Positions 4,962 through 62,124 of a stretch of 64,000 nucleotides of DNA are shown here, one piece after another. Below the pieces are notes generated by a model, which worked only from the letters and a program-made list of their open reading frames with translations, did no database searches and was not told where the DNA came from. This DNA comes from an uncultured Alphaproteobacteria bacterium. Its GTDB lineage: Bacteria > Pseudomonadota > Alphaproteobacteria > Rs-D84. Numbering within the stretch: position 1 is the stretch's first letter; the number at the start of each line of letters is the position of its first letter. Both the position numbers and the translations under genes were made by a program. The stretch lies in assembly GCA_934276735.1 (NCBI GenBank), contig CAKQTG010000001.1:224455-288454 (forward strand), written 5' to 3'.

Positions 4962-6956
4962 GTGAACAAAAAAAGTATATTTTCACTGGAAAGCAATTAT
5001 GCCCCCATGGGGGACCAGCCCGCGGCTATATCTGAATTGGTGGCCGGTGTTCGTGATGGGCGACGTTCCCAGGTATTGCTGGGGGTGACGGGTTCTGGCA
5101 AAACGTTCACGATGGCAAATGTTATCGCAGAATTGTCGCGACCGGCGTTGATTATGGCACCGAATAAAATCTTGGCGGCGCAATTGTATACAGAAATGAA
5201 ATCATTTTTTCCGCACAATCACGTTGAATACTTTGTGTCGTATTATGATTATTACCAGCCAGAGGCATATATGCCAACTACCGATACATATATTGACAAG
5301 GATGCGTCTATCAATGAACAATTGGACCGTATGCGGCACAGTGCGACGCGTGCTATGCTGGAAGAACGCGATGTTATTGTTGTATCGTCTGTATCGTCAA
5401 TTTATGGTATGGGGTCACCAGAACAGTATTCTGGTATGAAACTGGTCTTGCGCACAGGTGACAAGATAGGCCAATCGGACGTCATGCGTGCCTTGGTGGA
5501 TATTCAATATAAACGTAATGACATGGCGTTTGAACGTGGTAATTTTCGCGTCCGTGGCGATACGTTGGACGTGTTTCCGTCGCATTCTCAAGACCGTGCA
5601 TGGAAACTGTCGTTTTGGGGCGATGAAATCGAAGAGATTTGGGAATTTGATACACTGACAGGTGCAAAGTTGCATAAACTGGACAGAATTGCGATTTATC
5701 CAAATACGCATTATGCAACACCTATGCCCAGCGTGTTACAGGCAATCACTCAAATCAGGACAGATTTAGAAGAACGTCTGAAATATTTTCATGAAAATAT
5801 GAAGTATATAGAAGAACAGCGGCTGCGCGAAAGGGTGAATTTTGACATTGAAATGATGGAATCAACCGGGACGTGTCGTGGAATTGAAAACTATTCGCGT
5901 TACTTATCTGGGCGTGCGCCTGGTATGCCGCCACCAACACTGTTTGAATATCTGCCACGTGATGCCGTTTTATTTATTGACGAAAGTCACGTTACTGTGC
6001 CACAGATTTCGGCGATGTCACGTGGTGACCGCGCACGCAAAGAAACGTTGTCACAGTATGGTTTCCGGCTGCCGGCATGTATTGATAACCGGCCGTTGAC
6101 ATTTGACGAGTGGGACGTGTTGCGGCCGCAAACGATATTTGTTTCGGCGACGCCAGCCGAATGGGAATTAAACCAATCTGGTGGCATCGTGGCCGAGCAG
6201 GTTATTCGTCCAACGGGACTGCTTGATCCAGTCTGTGATGTGCGCCCGACGGCAAACCAGGTTGATGATTTATTGGACCAGATAAAGAAAACATCGGGGC
6301 GTGTGTTGGTCACAACACTGACCAAGAAAATGGCCGAACAATTGACCGATTACCTGAATGAAAATGGCGTGCGGGCCAAATATCTGCACAGCGATATTGA
6401 GACACTGGAACGTATTGAATTGTTGCGTGATTTGCGATTGGGTAAATATGATGTCTTGGTTGGTATCAATTTGTTGCGCGAAGGGTTGGACGTGCCAGAA
6501 TGTGAGTTGGTTGCGATTATGGATGCGGATAAAGAGGGTTTCTTGCGTTCAACGCGTTCACTGATTCAGACAATTGGTCGTGCGGCGCGTAATGCAAATG
6601 GTCGTGTGATTCTGTATGCTGATAAAATTACGGATTCAATGAATGCGGCGTTGACCGAAACGGCGCGTCGTCGGGAAAAGCAGATGGCATATAACACCGC
6701 ACATGGCATTACACCAACTACTGTGTCCAAGGCTATATTTGCCCAGGTTGGCGACAAGACTGACAAAACAGACAAGGCGCGTCGGTTTGTATATGATAAA
6801 TCGGGCGGCGTTATGGATGCAGACAGTATTCGCAAACAGATAAAAGATTTGAACAAGAAAATGCGCACGGCGGCAGAAAATCTGGAATTTGAAGATGCGG
6901 CTGAATTGCGTGATGCAATCCATAAACTGGAAGATGATTTGTTATTAGTGGAGTAA
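4962..6956 (+). CDS. uvrB: excinuclease ABC subunit B (UvrB); GTG start
   Basis: Walker [10 protein letters not shown], helicase motifs, C-terminal UvrB/UvrC interaction helix ([18 protein letters not shown]). Confidence 0.95.
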
Positions 6957-6958
6957 GT

Positions 6959-7459
6959 GTGAATAAAAAAATATTAAAAGAAAAGACCACCCCGGCCGTT
7001 GGCCACCCCTCCACCGGAGGGGAACTTGCTGTGTTCCCGTCGCGGACCAAGTTCTCCTCCTGTGGAGGAGTACCTGCAGGGGGAGGTGGTCTTGCTAGCA
7101 AGTCTGTTGTTTCATTTAATTTGCCGTATAACAAAAAGTTAGTTCAGCGTGCCAAGGATTTACGAAAATCTGGCAGTCTGCCCGAAGCGTTGTTATGGCG
7201 TGAAATTAAATCAAAGAAAATAAATGGTCTGGATTTTGACCGGCAAAAAGTTATCGGGAATTACATCGTTGATTTCTTTTGTGCAAAAATAAAAACAGTC
7301 ATAGAAATTGATGACAAGACGCACGAGTTAAAAGAGCGACATGATACCATACGAAATAAATATTTACAGGATTTGGGACTGAGAATAATTCATATACCTG
7401 CAAAAGATGTGTTGAAAAATCCATCATCTGTGGCAGAATTGCTGATAGGTATTTTATAG
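6959..7459 (+). CDS. DUF559 endonuclease-domain protein (Vsr-like fold); true start uncertain, possibly downstream of the palindromic element
   Basis: C-terminal 110 aa (LVQRAKDLRKSGSLPEALLWREIK...GNYIVDFFCAKIKTVIEIDDKTHE) matches the DUF559 pattern. The N-terminal 45 aa are Gly/Pro-rich low complexity encoded by a GC-rich palindromic element. Confidence 0.6.
   Translation: MNKKILKEKTTPAVGHPSTGGELAVFPSRTKFSSCGGVPAGGGGLASKSVVSFNLPYNKKLVQRAKDLRKSGSLPEALLWREIKSKKINGLDFDRQKVIGNYIVDFFCAKIKTVIEIDDKTHELKERHDTIRNKYLQDLGLRIIHIPAKDVLKNPSSVAELLIGIL
7001..7102. repeat. GC-rich nest of palindromes/hairpins (RPE/REP-like element)
   Basis: Hairpins cccctcc-acc-ggagggg (7006-7022), ggaac/gttcc (7021-7037) and ctcctcc-tgt-ggaggag (7054-7070). 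Also the 8-bp palindrome cctgcagg (7073-7080) and the 12-bp perfect palindrome cttgctagcaag (7091-7102). ggaacttg (7021-7028) is complementary to caagttcc (7048-7055). Confidence 0.55.
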
Positions 7460-7468
7460 GTAAAATAA

Positions 7469-7867
7469 ATGAAAGAATATTTGTTGAACAGTGTGGAAGA
7501 AACGCGCGACTGGGCGCGGGAATTTGCGAAAACCTTGCGTGCGCCGGTATGTGTGGCGTTGCACGGCGACCTGGGAATGGGCAAGAGTGAGATTGCCCGC
7601 ACAATAATTCAGACCCTGCGTGGGGCGGATACTGTTGTGCCCAGTCCGACATTTACCATTGTGCAAAACTATGATGGAATATCACACTTTGACCTGTATC
7701 GCATAAATGATGCGTCAGAATTGGTGGAAATTGGGTTGCCATATGCAATTGCAAATGATATTACGTTGATAGAATGGCCCGATGTCGCAACGGATGTTTT
7801 GCCAACGGATACAATTCATATTTATCTGACAGAATACGGGGCAGGGCGCAGATTGGTTATAAAATAG
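7469..7867 (+). CDS. tsaE: tRNA threonylcarbamoyladenosine biosynthesis ATPase TsaE
   Basis: P-loop ALHGDLGMGKSEIARTI and overall YjeE/TsaE pattern, 132 aa. Confidence 0.85.
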   Translation: MKEYLLNSVEETRDWAREFAKTLRAPVCVALHGDLGMGKSEIARTIIQTLRGADTVVPSPTFTIVQNYDGISHFDLYRINDASELVEIGLPYAIANDITLIEWPDVATDVLPTDTIHIYLTEYGAGRRLVIK

Positions 7868-8023: not shown

Positions 8024-8052
8024 CAAAAAACGGGGCGTTTGCCCCGTTTTTA
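8024..8052. terminator. bidirectional Rho-independent terminator (tsaE / ftsA-rpe convergent)
   Basis: aaaaaacggggc-gttt-gccccgttttt. The stop codon of the minus-strand gene lies in the T-run. Confidence 0.7.
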
Positions 8053-9819
8053 TCGCTTTAATAAACTCTGAACTGCCAGGGGAAAATCCGGACTGCGTGC
8101 CAAATATGAGCCGCTGACCAATAAATCTGCGCCGGCGTCCCAGCACATTTGTGCTGTTTTATCATTTATTCCACCATCTACTGAAATTATAAATTTCAGT
8201 CCGTATTTTTTACGTGTTGCGGCCAAAACAGAAATCTTTTTCAGGCAATCTGTTTGGAATTCTTGGCCGGCGGCACCTGGGGCGACGGTCATAACCATAA
8301 CTTCGTCCACATCACGCAGAATTGGCTTTAATATCGCAGGTGATGATTCTGGGTTCAGGGCAACGCCTGCACGACGCCCTGCCGCGTGAACGCTGGCAAT
8401 AGCCGCACGCAGACCAGACGTATTTGTTGACATGATAACCGTGTCGGCACCGGCGGCAACACTGTCGGTGGCCCAGACGGACGGACTCTCGGTCATCAGG
8501 TGTACGTGCAGGTGTGCGTCAGTGTGGGCACGTATCATCTTTAATTCTGGAATACCACCCGCCACGCGGTCAACATAGAATCCGTCCATAATATCAACGT
8601 GTATCATTGATATTCCGCCCGCACGAAACATTGAATATGTTGATGCACGACGCATATTAAAACACAGTGTGCTGGGCATAATTGGAATAAAACGACGGCG
8701 GTGTGCTGGGCGTTTGCGGAACAGTTTTGTTATAAAAGCAATGCGACGCTGTATACGATCACGACGCGCCAGGTACGCGCCACGATGAGTCGCCTCGGCA
8801 TTCCAGACGTGCGCACATGCCGCCCGAACAATTGCGTCATTGGAAATATATTCGGTCGGAATTGAAAATGTGTTTTCAATGAACTCGGTCGCCCCCTCGG
8901 CCAGTGCGCCACCACCGGTCAATATAATCTTGGTTGGGCGATATTTGATAATCGCGTCATGAGCCGCAGTCGTTATTTCGGCGGTAATATCAACGCATGC
9001 TGGCATAAATATATCGATGACATCGCCACGTGAAAATTCGTATGCGGTATCGGCGGGGGTAAATCTATCCATTTCTTTGGGGATAAAACTGGCTACTGCA
9101 CGCTTTATCCGTTCAGCGTCATCAAAACCTATGTGCAATTTTGCAGAAATGTCGTTTGTTATTTTTGTTCCACCCAGTGGAATTTTATAGTGCCAGACTG
9201 GGCCACGGTCGGTCCAAATGGACGCTGATGAAAATTCCCCGCCCAGGTCAATGAACATGACTGTTTGTTTCTTTTGTCGCAATGTTGTATTCAGTAAAAA
9301 TTGCGGGTCATAAAATGCACAGGGTGTGATATGGGCGCGACGCAGAAAACCCAATACTTCGTTCAATCGCGATTTCGTATAAAATATTGCGCCAAACGCC
9401 GATATCAGCTGTCGGTCGGTATAGCCAATTGGACTAATCATATTGCGTGCGGTTGGCGTATCGTATCGCAGTGGCACGATATGCATTGGAAAGTATCCGT
9501 CAGGCGCGTTTATCTGGGCAATCTGGGCACGGACATCGGCAGTTGTGATTTTGTGTTCGCCGCCCCAAGCGGTGCTTTTTGCAGTCATTTCAAAAATAGA
9601 CGTGCCAAAATTCCCCGTGATATATGCGGTGTCAAAACTGGTTCCGATTTGATGTTCCAGATCGTCAATTACATACCGCAGTGCAAACACGGTATCAAAA
9701 CAATCCGATGTTGAAATTGCAGATTTTACAATCTTGGCCCCACGGACACGGTGTGCCATTCCGCGCACACCGGTCGATCCAATGTCCAGACATAAAAAAG
9801 CCGAATCAAACAGGTTCAT
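8050..9819 (-). CDS. ftsA: FtsA (actin-like cell-division ATPase) fused in frame to ribulose-phosphate 3-epimerase (Rpe); single 589-aa ORF
   Basis: N-terminal ~370 aa carry the FtsA motifs LCLDIGSTGVRG, FIDLGGEFSSASIW and ILTGGGALAEG, plus a C-terminal amphipathic segment IAFITKLFRKRPAHRRRF. Translation continues without a stop into a complete Rpe barrel (HVDIMDGFYV ... ISVDGGINDKT ... LLVSGSYL). Confidence 0.7.
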   Translation of the reverse strand: MNLFDSAFLCLDIGSTGVRGMAHRVRGAKIVKSAISTSDCFDTVFALRYVIDDLEHQIGTSFDTAYITGNFGTSIFEMTAKSTAWGGEHKITTADVRAQIAQINAPDGYFPMHIVPLRYDTPTARNMISPIGYTDRQLISAFGAIFYTKSRLNEVLGFLRRAHITPCAFYDPQFLLNTTLRQKKQTVMFIDLGGEFSSASIWTDRGPVWHYKIPLGGTKITNDISAKLHIGFDDAERIKRAVASFIPKEMDRFTPADTAYEFSRGDVIDIFMPACVDITAEITTAAHDAIIKYRPTKIILTGGGALAEGATEFIENTFSIPTEYISNDAIVRAACAHVWNAEATHRGAYLARRDRIQRRIAFITKLFRKRPAHRRRFIPIMPSTLCFNMRRASTYSMFRAGGISMIHVDIMDGFYVDRVAGGIPELKMIRAHTDAHLHVHLMTESPSVWATDSVAAGADTVIMSTNTSGLRAAIASVHAAGRRAGVALNPESSPAILKPILRDVDEVMVMTVAPGAAGQEFQTDCLKKISVLAATRKKYGLKFIISVDGGINDKTAQMCWDAGADLLVSGSYLARSPDFPLAVQSLLKR

Positions 9820-49043: not shown

Positions 49044-50807
49044 ATGCCGGTTCGTTTGTTGCCTGATTTTTTGATAAACCAAATTGCCGCTGGCGAGGTT
49101 GTTGAACGTCCCGCCAGTGTGGTCAAAGAATTGGTTGAAAACGCGCTGGACGCGGGCGCAGACCAAATTATGGTTGACGTTGCCGATGGCGGTCGAACAA
49201 TGATTTCTGTTATAGATAATGGTTCGGGTATGTCGCGCGATGACCTGGGGCGGGCGATACAGCGGCATGCGACATCAAAATTGCCAGATGATGATTTATT
49301 AAATATCAACTTTATGGGATTCCGGGGCGAGGCATTGCCATCAATCGCATCTGTGTCTGATATGACGATTGATACATGCAATGGCGCGGACCCCAATGGT
49401 TGGCAATTAAATGCCACGACGGGTGATGTGCGACCGTCTGATTGGGAATCTGGGACGCGAATTCGGGTGTTGAATTTGTTTGCCCGGACGCCTGCGCGTC
49501 TGAAATTCTTGCGTACAGACAGGGCAGAAATGATGTCTGTGTTGGACGTTGTGCGTCGTTTGGCAATGGCAAGACCAGATGTTGGATTTGTATTAAACAA
49601 TAAATGGCGTTTCCCACGTGGACAAGATTTACGTGACCGTATTGTCGCTGTGATGGGCGATGATGTTGCCGGTCGTATGATTGCCGTTGATGCGCACAGC
49701 ACGACAACCACTGGTTTGGAATTACATGGATTTATTTCAGAGCCCACATTGCGTCGTGCATCGTCGGTTGATCAATATCTGTTTGTAAATGGTCGTCCTG
49801 TCCGGGACAAGGTTTTGGTTGGTGCGTTGCGTGCGGCATATATGGATGTTATGCATGCACGCGAATTTCCACTATGTGCACTGTATCTAACGGTCCCACC
49901 GCGCAGTGTGGACGTAAATGTATCGCCCGCCAAGACCGAAGTGCATTTTCTAGAACCGTCGCATATTCGCAGTTTTATTATAAAAACATTGCGTTCGGCA
50001 TTATCGAAAACGATGAATGTTGCGCCATCAATTGATGTGACCCATCACACACCAATGGAATTTGCGAAGGCGGTGGCGCAAAAAATAAACTTTGGATTGC
50101 CGCCCGCCGGCGCGCGCGTGTGCGAACCGTCGACACTGTCTGAATTATCAGAAATGAACGAAATATTTTCGGCGTCCGCGGCTGCCCCCGCGATGACGCC
50201 CGCATCCGCGCCCGTGGCGACGACGGGTGGCGCGGACCCTGATATGCCACTGGGGCGCGTAATTGGCCAGATTGGCAATAAATACATTTTGGCGGCATCT
50301 GGCGATAATCTGGTGGTGGTGGACCAGCATGCGGCGCATGAACGTATTACGTATGAACGCCTGCGTCGGCATGCGATAAAATCGCAGCCATTGCTGACAC
50401 CGATAGTTGTACACATGCGTGATACAGATGTCGCGGCGATTATGACGATTGCGGATGAAATGCGGGTGTCAGGCCTGCACATTGATGCGTTTGGCGATGA
50501 CGCGATTGCTATATTCGAGAAGCCTGCCGATTGGGATTTGAATTGGGCAAATCTGTTTCATGATATTGCAGACGAAGTGCGTGCGAATGGCCATTCGTGC
50601 CAATTGGACGAAAAGTTACATTTAAAATTGGCAAATTACGCATGTCACCACAGTGTGCGTGCTGGTCAACGCTTGGATATGCAATCTTGTGATGCGTTAT
50701 TGCGAGAGATAGAACGAACCGAACGTGGTGCGCAATGTAATCATGGGCGACCGGTGTATAAATTTATCCCGATTACAGATATGGACGCATGGTTTGAACG
50801 CGTCTAG
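49044..50807 (+). CDS. mutL: DNA mismatch repair protein MutL
   Basis: GHKL ATPase N-terminus INQIAAGEVVERPASVVKELVENALDAGA; C-terminal dimerisation domain. Confidence 0.9.
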   Translation: MPVRLLPDFLINQIAAGEVVERPASVVKELVENALDAGADQIMVDVADGGRTMISVIDNGSGMSRDDLGRAIQRHATSKLPDDDLLNINFMGFRGEALPSIASVSDMTIDTCNGADPNGWQLNATTGDVRPSDWESGTRIRVLNLFARTPARLKFLRTDRAEMMSVLDVVRRLAMARPDVGFVLNNKWRFPRGQDLRDRIVAVMGDDVAGRMIAVDAHSTTTTGLELHGFISEPTLRRASSVDQYLFVNGRPVRDKVLVGALRAAYMDVMHAREFPLCALYLTVPPRSVDVNVSPAKTEVHFLEPSHIRSFIIKTLRSALSKTMNVAPSIDVTHHTPMEFAKAVAQKINFGLPPAGARVCEPSTLSELSEMNEIFSASAAAPAMTPASAPVATTGGADPDMPLGRVIGQIGNKYILAASGDNLVVVDQHAAHERITYERLRRHAIKSQPLLTPIVVHMRDTDVAAIMTIADEMRVSGLHIDAFGDDAIAIFEKPADWDLNWANLFHDIADEVRANGHSCQLDEKLHLKLANYACHHSVRAGQRLDMQSCDALLREIERTERGAQCNHGRPVYKFIPITDMDAWFERV

Positions 50808-61749: not shown

Positions 61750-62124
61750 TTGATAAATAACGATAAAAATTCTGACTTTACATTGGCGGTCGCCAATCTG
61801 GCGGCGGCGGCGATTGCGGCGAATCCGGGGTTGACGATGACGGCGGCGGTTGCGGCGGCGCGTGAAACATTGCGCGGGGCGTCGGCAACACCGGCCCAGA
61901 TTGCGGCATCGGTCCGACCGGATAAAATTCAATGTCTGGAAGATGGCACCTGGCACATAATGCTGCGCCGGTATATTCGTCGCAAATTTAATATGACACC
62001 GGACGCGTATCGTGAAAAGTGGGGACTGCCGGCGGACTATCCATTTGTTGCGCCGAACTATGCATTACATCGGTCCAAGATTGCCAAGAAATCAGGCCTG
62101 GGAAAAACAAAGCGGGGAAAATAA
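61750..62124 (+). CDS. MucR/Ros-family transcriptional regulator-like protein (zinc ligands partly substituted)
   Basis: C-terminal FNMTPDAYREKWGLPADYPFVAPNYALHRSKIAKKSGLG matches the Ros/MucR conserved tail; CLED in place of the CxxC. Confidence 0.6.
   Translation: MINNDKNSDFTLAVANLAAAAIAANPGLTMTAAVAAARETLRGASATPAQIAASVRPDKIQCLEDGTWHIMLRRYIRRKFNMTPDAYREKWGLPADYPFVAPNYALHRSKIAKKSGLGKTKRGK

Follow-up and report, generated by a model that had tools for sequence, protein, structure and literature searches.

How a GC-rich palindrome comes to lie in frame at the very start of a nuclease gene is the question raised by a locus between uvrB and tsaE in a 64,000-nucleotide stretch of DNA from an uncultured alphaproteobacterium of the Rs-D84 lineage (assembly GCA_934276735.1, contig CAKQTG010000001.1, positions 224,455 to 288,454; this whole stretch is hereafter called the window). 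The uvrB gene ends at position 6956 and tsaE starts at 7469, and between them there is an open reading frame (ORF) of 166 amino acids with a GTG start (6959-7459), whose product carries a DUF559 domain. The original prediction, made from the letters of the sequence, regarded the palindromic DNA at the 5' end of this ORF as a repeat of the type of the Rickettsia palindromic elements (RPEs) or of the repetitive extragenic palindromic (REP) sequences, inserted in frame into the gene. Our analysis indicates that the RPE-like idea was right in kind and wrong in its specific history: the segment 6983-7093 is probably an inverted doublet similar to REPINs (REP doublets forming hairpins), which constitutes the terminal repeat module of a compact selfish cassette encoding a DUF559 nuclease, a Vsr-like enzyme of the PD-(D/E)XK type.

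Overlapping palindromes do follow the uvrB stop, as originally described, but the element extends over positions 6983-7093 and not 7001-7102, since the individual hairpins belong to one long imperfect palindrome of 111 bp with perfect 9-bp ends. Its 46-nt arms are 74% complementary, and its terminal inverted repeats are AAGACCACC on the left (6983-6991, + strand), which is invariant across orthologues, and GGTGGTCTT on the right (7085-7093, + strand), which pairs with it. The last of the palindromes formerly assigned to the element, CTTGCTAGCAAG (7091-7102, 12 nt), falls outside it and is unconserved in orthologues. The doublet is made of two inverted 37-nt units, each containing ACCACCCC, a variable hairpin (hairpin B) and a hairpin CCCCTCC-nnn-GGAGGGG (hairpin A), which are set around a 31-nt middle segment. 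The left unit, called unit U (6986-7022, + strand), is of the downstream type and reads ACCACCCC, hairpin B (GGCCgttGGCC, 6994-7004, + strand), a single A and hairpin A (CCCCTCCaccGGAGGGG, 7006-7022, + strand); it matches exactly the cross-phylum pattern described below and is about 95% identical to the unit found at the 3' end of DUF559 genes in three other loci (L016, L017 and L020). The middle segment (7023-7053) consists of AACTTG at 7023-7028, a 19-nt centre at 7029-7047 and CAAGTT at 7048-7053. The inverted unit (7054-7090, - strand), recognized by both a regular expression and a covariance model, is of the upstream type, that is, the kind that directly precedes DUF559 genes, and includes hairpin A' (CTCCTCCtgtGGAGGAG, 7054-7070, - strand) and the palindrome CCTGCAGG (7073-7080, - strand), after which comes GGTGGT.

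This palindrome exceeds what is expected by chance. The GC content of the element is 64-68%, against 46% for the window, its predicted fold has z-scores of -4.3 on one strand and -4.5 on the other, none of 200 shuffles folding equally well, and the unit pattern used in our searches (ACCACCCC-N7-30-CCCCTCC-N2-7-GGAGGGG) has one match in the window and none in 100 shuffles. Covariance-model scores were 57.8 bits for unit U and 49.4 bits for the inverted unit, in both cases with the sequence itself included in the model. Neither blastn-short nor a covariance model run with filters off detected a second copy in the 64 kb of the window. Other GC-rich islands of the window, inspected as possible further copies, proved to be ordinary coding regions; the highest-GC stretches (75-78%, at 50148-50280 and 61774-61927) are Ala/Pro-rich coding linkers and not copies of the element, the former lying probably within a MutL-like gene, as judged from a downstream peptide motif.

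The relation between units and gene became apparent from 80 genome loci of more than ten phyla, which included Alphaproteobacteria (among them Ca. Enterousia), Bacteroidota, Fibrobacterota, Armatimonadota, Calditrichota, Cloacimonadota, Bacillota, Chloroflexota, Gammaproteobacteria, Spirochaetota and others. Around this DUF559 subfamily the order is fixed: inverted unit, gene, unit. The upstream layout is AATT-CCCCTCC-nnn-GGAGGGG-T-(hairpin B)-GGGGTGGT, followed by a few nucleotides and the start codon, and the downstream layout is AACCACCCC-(hairpin B)-A-CCCCTCC-nnn-GGAGGGG-AATT, the ends of the unit being ACCACCCC and GGAGGGGAA(T/C). These loci contain 273 units, 93 of them in inverted orientation at most 150 nt upstream of DUF559 and 79 in forward orientation at most 150 nt downstream. 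Cassettes with variant units carry the same variant at both ends in five of five cases (GACACCCC/CCCCTCT/AGAGGGG or ACTACCCC/CCCCTTC/GAAGGGG). The layout of the window, a doublet followed by the gene, is found in other phyla as well (L027, L042, L072, L080, L081 and L087).

Hairpin B is free in sequence and length but its pairing is kept, with double changes at four of four pairs and 97.4% of its cells in standard pairs, compared with 90.0% in shuffles. Only 3 of 726 are G·U pairs, and this near absence points to a constraint acting on both DNA strands and not on one RNA. Recurrent peptides are encoded by the units at the N- and C-termini of DUF559 homologues (SPPLEGW..GVV, FPS.GGV..GRGG, NHPALTGTPP.EGN and TTP..GHPS.GGE); since the same unit is read in other frames or on the other strand in distant DUF559 genes, it is the DNA that is conserved rather than the peptide. 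Where units are arranged in tandem, their periods are 42, 45, 48, 54 and 63 nt, with multiples of three in 35 of 38 instances.

When set beside these cassettes, the doublet is seen to join the outer ends of a cassette head to head (GGAGGGG-AACTTG-19 nt-CAAGTT-CTCCTCC), the AACTT/AAGTT of the middle segment corresponding to the outer-end extensions of alphaproteobacterial cassettes. Such a head-to-head doublet has the polarity expected of a circle or tandem-copy junction of a canonical cassette (compare the ends in L016-L023).

An unbiased pattern scan of metagenome contigs yielded 205 units, 170 of which were evaluable, and 33 of the evaluable units lay within 300 nt of this DUF559. When the neighbours of all 205 units were clustered, DUF559 was the sole recurring gene family, found at 14 loci versus at most 4 for any other. 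The elements without DUF559 comprised 94 singles, 20 doublets in the order unit then inverted unit, and 13 doublets in the opposite order. Solo elements are located mostly outside long ORFs, with 35% of them in ORFs of at least 200 amino acids compared to 80% of random positions; in the DUF559 loci, units lie within long stop-free frames as often as random positions do.

The complete cassette of the window, formed by a short leader, the palindromic doublet and the DUF559 gene, spans 512 bp (6957-7468, + strand), precisely what separates the uvrB stop from the tsaE start. The order uvrB-DUF559-tsaE is kept in related metagenome contigs, and close relatives could be found through TsaE homologues, which are abundant. 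Three conspecific contigs (L262, L264 and L266) match the window with 95.1-99.3% identity up to position 6956 on the uvrB side (98.7-99.3% for L262 and L264) and with 97.3-97.7% identity from position 7469 on the tsaE side, and in place of 6957-7468 they carry an unrelated 260-bp segment with an ORF of 86 amino acids. This ORF (MIKTTDKINRKEV..., located at 3244-3504 in L262) has no Pfam match. In a sister species (88% identical; L267-271) there is just TAA-GATAG-ATG, an empty gap of 5 nt with the junction sequence GGAGTAAGATAGATGAAGG. At least three alleles thus occur at the uvrB-tsaE slot (cassette, 86-amino-acid ORF and empty), and because the flanks align up to exactly those bounds in the relatives lacking the cassette, the unit of gain and loss is the segment 6957-7468.

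Synonymous divergence (dS) between the window and the related locus L001 is 0.695 for uvrB, 0.379 for tsaE and only 0.079 for DUF559, a far lower value which indicates that the sharing of the cassette with L001 is more recent than that of the genes flanking it. In the same comparison, other pairs have the appearance of vertical descent.

The doublet itself has been inverted in place among relatives. Compared with L001, 102 of the 111 bp of the window are identical when read as the reverse complement and 73 of 111 when read directly. Four configurations are found at this one site if the orientations of the outer part and of the centre are considered separately: both A in the window and L004, both B in L001 and L007, outer part A with centre B in L009, and outer part B with centre A in L011, so that in the latter two loci the middle segment (7023-7053) has been flipped on its own, apart from the outer parts. 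Either the uvrB tree or the DUF559 tree requires, among six cassette lineages, a minimum of three inversions of the whole doublet and one of its inner part, and one whole inversion falls within a cassette divergence of just dS 0.08. The ORF stays open in every natural and in-silico flip, and the flips are probably neutral, since the units are stop-free on both strands in the frames used.

The orientation differences observed are between species, and the nested inversions use differing breakpoints. No recombinase Pfam family was found within ±10 kb in the syntenic loci L001 and L004, and in an exact look-up against a collection of 15 billion proteins none of three in-silico flipped forms of the window protein was present, whereas the window's own allele was found on 3 contigs. 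We infer from these observations that the flips arise by spontaneous recombination between the arms, or by template switching in the quasi-palindrome, and not through a dedicated invertase. Similar flips are known for hairpin loops of plastid DNA, and template switching is known at bacterial quasi-palindromes. A different kind of change in the element was seen in three relatives (L004, L005 and L006), in which a 57-bp in-frame insertion with a small hairpin of its own (CAAAATCtaacGATTTTG) occupies the loop of hairpin A of the left unit and leaves the ORF intact (alignment columns 92-130 of A1).

As to whether the element is translated, the Gly/Pro-rich peptide quoted in the original prediction is indeed the in-frame translation of the ORF 6959-7459. 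The region 6950-6961 (+ strand) contains a GGAG within the last uvrB codons (6950-6953), five nucleotides upstream of the ORF start, followed by the uvrB stop TAA (6954-6956) and the GTG start (6959-6961), while relatives have an overlapping ATGA stop/start; this layout suggests translational coupling of DUF559 to uvrB. The leader peptide ILK[E/Q]KTT (ILKTT in L009 and L011) is conserved, as is the stop/start overlap. In most phyla GGGGTG-GTG contains the start codon or immediately precedes it, and in distant homologues this codon comes directly after GGGGUGGU; in the clade of the window the GGGGTG-GTG start is out of frame (GGAGGTGGTCTT), which argues that ribosomes read through the doublet.

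It had also been proposed that the real start lies downstream and that the palindromes form an intergenic terminator. The orthologue alignment lends no support to this, as it shows no conserved in-frame start between the doublet and the LPYN motif and all indels are multiples of three (the insertions in the element being of 57 bp and 3 bp), and no intrinsic terminator was found on the + strand in the region 6700-7600. The TTG at 7121, which is the Leu codon of LPYN, is not a conserved start, given that L001, L004 and L007 have TTA instead. Judging from the sequence comparisons, the protein is most likely translated from the GTG at 6959 through the doublet, which would provide it with a disordered, Gly/Pro-rich tail of about 50 amino acids containing the peptide TTPAVGHPSTGGELAVFPSR.

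The N-terminal extension noted at the outset is real: the Pfam DUF559 domain covers amino acids 60-162, so that the first ~55 residues, derived from the leader and the doublet, are extra. In the AlphaFold2 (AF2) model the confidence score pLDDT is below 50 for amino acids 1-50, which are predicted to be disordered, and 82-95 for amino acids 51-166. The nuclease domain (7136-7444, + strand; PF04480, E=6e-27) was accompanied in the Pfam search only by MTES_1575. Known structures similar to it are 3HRL, which was matched by sequence (E=6e-14) and by the fold of the AF2 model (TM score 0.83), I-Bth0305I (3R3P, probability 1.0, TM score 0.67) and Vsr (1CW0), and the catalytic residues D105, E116, D118 and H122 are invariant. 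The ratio of nonsynonymous to synonymous substitution rates (ω) is 0.09-0.23 among orthologues, showing that DUF559 is under purifying selection.

Units or whole cassettes are also present in frame inside other genes, including queA, hsdR, hsdM, hsdS, priA and type ISP restriction genes. In queA, a whole cassette occupies a variable loop in frame, the C-terminal part of QueA is conserved, and genomes with the empty site exist for comparison. Insertion sites are shared across families or phyla: in hsdR just before ESPESYG..GSGKS, in priA before GSGKT, in type ISP enzymes before APIDILDYIYAVLHSP, and in a methylase. In an alphaproteobacterial metagenome-assembled genome (MAG), priA (L033, ~6001-6327) contains an in-frame cassette whose ends are of a variant type (GACACCCC / CCCCTCT..AGAGGGG) and which immediately precedes the GSGKT Walker A motif, the hsdR cassettes lying likewise before GSGKS, a choice of site that resembles that of inteins. 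The hsdR gene of a Chitinophagales MAG (L048, 4492-8898) is a single ORF of 1468 amino acids with four unit arrays, a DUF559 cassette and a separate GIY-YIG-like insert containing ..YFTYVIECKGGSYYIGQASDLIRRWEQH.., and in-frame units were seen in the hsdM gene of L048 (108-1715) and in a Pseudomonadales hsdS (L070, 3965-5971). Intron-like removal of the cassette was considered and judged unlikely, since the in-frame, stop-free layout and the periods in multiples of three would be needless if the cassette were spliced out.

Taking the linkage, the matched cassette ends and the homology of the protein together, it is reasonable to suppose that the nuclease recognizes and mobilizes the units. It may recognize the unit sequences at the ends of the cassette, or the site lacking the cassette, and nick or cut there, after which recombinational repair would copy the cassette, leading to a homing-like spread. 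Solo units would be non-autonomous passengers or relics, and in the window the doublet would have been co-opted into the ORF as a repeat module. A phage or plasmid as vehicle was considered and rejected, since 2.9 million viral contigs contained only one close DUF559 relative and 40 stretches with units, and there was no DNA or protein match in 72,556 plasmids. A much broader proposal, which we consider possible but rather doubtful, is that such cassettes represent a third homing-type route into coding sequence, requiring neither intron nor intein, in which an in-frame, stop-free module has hairpin ends that would act both as recognition sites and as flexible Gly/Pro-rich linkers, and in which the same nuclease would disperse solo units and doublets, as a pan-bacterial analogue of REPINs independent of RAYTs (REP-associated tyrosine transposases).

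Several observations weigh against the selfish cassette. The case for an action of DUF559 on the units is one of linkage only, and 137 of the 170 evaluable metagenome units (81%) have no DUF559 within 300 nt, indicating that units need no adjacent nuclease in order to persist, and perhaps also to spread. Target-site duplications were looked for and not found: the end extensions AATT/AATT or AAGTT/AACTT are inverted and not direct, and nothing is conserved beyond them. With one doublet in 64 kb and no such duplication, activity in this genome can be only putative. The low DUF559 dS relative to L001 could partly reflect constraint or gene conversion, and the slot, given that an unrelated ORF is found there too, may be no more than a hot spot of recombination. 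The shared sites in hsdR and type ISP genes could represent one old insertion spread with mobile restriction-modification genes instead of repeated homing. Finally, the units are by their nature free of stops in several frames, so that the open ORF by itself is weak evidence of translation.

Other explanations of the locus share part of this evidence. DUF559 could be a domesticated, host-beneficial nuclease, for example one linked to repair or defence in the manner of RAYTs, with the hairpin units as its genomic substrates or regulators. Its long vertical persistence at one locus under purifying selection (dS up to ~1.7, ω ~0.1) and the frequent linkage of cassettes to restriction-modification genes fit such a role, and RAYTs are themselves thought to be domesticated, single-copy and vertically inherited, according to PMC5581495 and bioRxiv 10.1101/2022.05.22.493013. 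We nevertheless consider domestication unlikely, given that the cassette is polymorphic within the species and lost in the sister species, shows signs of interspecies transfer, is found inserted inside essential or conserved genes, and gave only noise in a PADLOC search for defence systems. It is very unlikely that the element is a cis-acting structured RNA, either a stabilizer, attenuator or terminator of the uvrB 3' end or a leader controlling DUF559 translation through CCUCC/GGAGG pairing. The strong predicted fold (z -4.3), the pairing of an anti-Shine-Dalgarno-like CCUCC with GGAGG in hairpin A, the start codon of distant homologues just after GGGGUGGU, and the known action of REPs as RNA elements (PMC3733652) speak for this explanation, but the element functions at the one site whichever way it is oriented, units are found inside unrelated ORFs, and the scarcity of G·U pairs and the lack of a + strand terminator argue in the same direction. 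Rfam gave only chance matches far below gathering scores for 6500-7700, and only tRNAs, with no match overlapping a unit, for 11 other cassette loci. Termination at the uvrB 3' end would moreover be harmful, as a gap of 5 nt is all that separates uvrB from the following tsaE where the cassette is absent and the slot empty.

Perfect terminal inverted repeats, and both orientations at one site with an open ORF, would also be expected of a programmed invertible switch (an intragenic inverton), in which a recombinase flips the 111 bp so as to alternate the N-terminal peptides or tune DUF559 expression, and 'DUF559 domain-containing protein' is enriched 14-fold among predicted targets of programmed inversion (Milman et al. 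2023, PMC9881135). The absence of recombinase families within ±10 kb, the fact that the orientation differences observed are between species, with flipped window proteins missing from the 15-billion-protein collection, and the differing nested breakpoints, which fit arm-to-arm recombination better than a site-specific enzyme, make this highly unlikely, and both peptides are in any case of low complexity and predicted to be disordered. Least probable of all, and in our judgement scarcely credible, is the narrow model of an RPE/REP-type dispersed repeat secondarily inserted in frame into a DUF559 gene that already existed, at its 5' end. This model accounts for an element that is palindromic, in frame and translated, and members of the family do insert in frame elsewhere, in queA, hsdR, hsdM, hsdS and priA, in the manner of RPEs; what does not hold is an independent insertion into this gene. 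Of 80 loci examined across phyla, all 80 have units at the flanks of this DUF559 subfamily, so that the link predates the clade of the window, doublet and gene are gained or lost jointly, there is no further copy in the window, and orthologues share the N-terminal extension.

If the selfish nuclease cassette proposed here is correct, a large subfamily of the very common DUF559 proteins gains a role as the nuclease partner of a two-hairpin repeat, and REP-like repeats without a partner gain a candidate mobilizing enzyme outside the HUH transposases. The in-frame cassettes (in queA, in priA before the P-loop, in hsdR before motif I, and in type ISP genes) raise the question of how essential proteins tolerate or remove a selfish insert of ~150 amino acids. 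There are practical consequences for annotation, as the units create spurious N- and C-terminal extensions and 'fusion proteins', and they likely inflate predictions of programmed inversion for DUF559 and restriction-modification genes. They also represent a natural set of linker sequences that are stop-free and independent of orientation.

Elsewhere in the window, an ORF of 589 amino acids (8050-9819, - strand) joins an FtsA-like N-terminal half to a C-terminal half similar to ribulose-phosphate 3-epimerase; PF14450 and PF00834 were matched on an orthologue, and the fusion is kept in all relatives examined.

In our survey of the literature on DUF559, COG2852, I-Bth0305I, RPEs, REPIN/RAYT systems and the unit sequences, no description of the units or of their link to DUF559 was found, the one related point being the enrichment of DUF559 proteins among predicted inversion targets (PMC9881135). 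The programmed inversions and intragenic invertons of that study resemble the doublet in having a coding segment bounded by inverted repeats that occurs in both orientations with the frame kept; they differ from it in that the doublet has no invertase within ±10 kb, shows no heterogeneity within strains detectable by protein look-up, and has varying breakpoints. As with miniature inverted-repeat transposable elements (MITEs), small non-coding derivatives share terminal repeats with an autonomous element, but there is neither a direct target-site duplication nor a DDE transposase, and the outer ends of the doublet face each other, in the opposite polarity.

RPEs (Ogata et al. 2000), as summarized in PMC3733652, are palindromes of ~100-150 bp lying in frame inside genes with functional products, their peptides being tolerated as extra segments, and to that extent the comparison made in the original prediction is apt. 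An RPE in the strict sense, of the Rickettsia families RPE-1 to RPE-8, is improbable, since the host is of an alphaproteobacterial MAG lineage of the gut, and since the units, which are GC-rich, are spread over many phyla. Within the scope of that summary, RPEs are without a partner gene, whereas the unit family has an associated nuclease gene, and in the window the element belongs to the cassette of the gene itself instead of being a secondary insertion.

The similarity with REP/REPIN-RAYT systems (PMC3116915, Bertels & Rainey 2011; PMC3337134; PMC3733652, Di Nocera 2013) is more extensive, comprising short imperfect palindromic units, pairs of inverted units that enclose a spacer and fold as one longer hairpin, one nuclease gene flanked by inverted units, and dispersed solo or paired copies, some of them intragenic. 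In contrast to these systems, the partner is a DUF559/Vsr-like PD-(D/E)XK protein instead of a Y1 HUH tyrosine transposase of the IS200/IS605 type (RAYT), and the cassette is polymorphic and apparently exchanged between species. In-frame arrays with periods in multiples of three are also prominent here. The units are not classical REPs either, as had been suggested, because they lack the GTAG/CGTC end tetranucleotide by which REPs are defined (PMC3733652) and are not associated with a RAYT. REPs are lineage-specific and present in tens to hundreds of mainly extragenic copies per genome, whereas the units are nearly invariant in sequence across phyla and there is one doublet in 64 kb, the copy number in the genome appearing to be low.

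Vsr-like enzymes are proven homing endonucleases, as established for I-Bth0305I (Taylor et al. 2011, PMC3239194). This enzyme possesses NUMOD modules for DNA binding and is encoded within a self-splicing group I intron, whereas the cassette has neither intron nor intein and occurs either in intergenic position or as an insert that is in frame, free of stops and bracketed by hairpin repeats, and cleavage of the empty site is in its case only putative. The nuclease fold is nevertheless shared (3R3P, as matched by Foldseek), as is the occurrence as small selfish genes at fixed sites in conserved genes, and, like free-standing homing endonuclease genes, the cassette shows presence/absence polymorphism at a precise site and is younger than its flanks.

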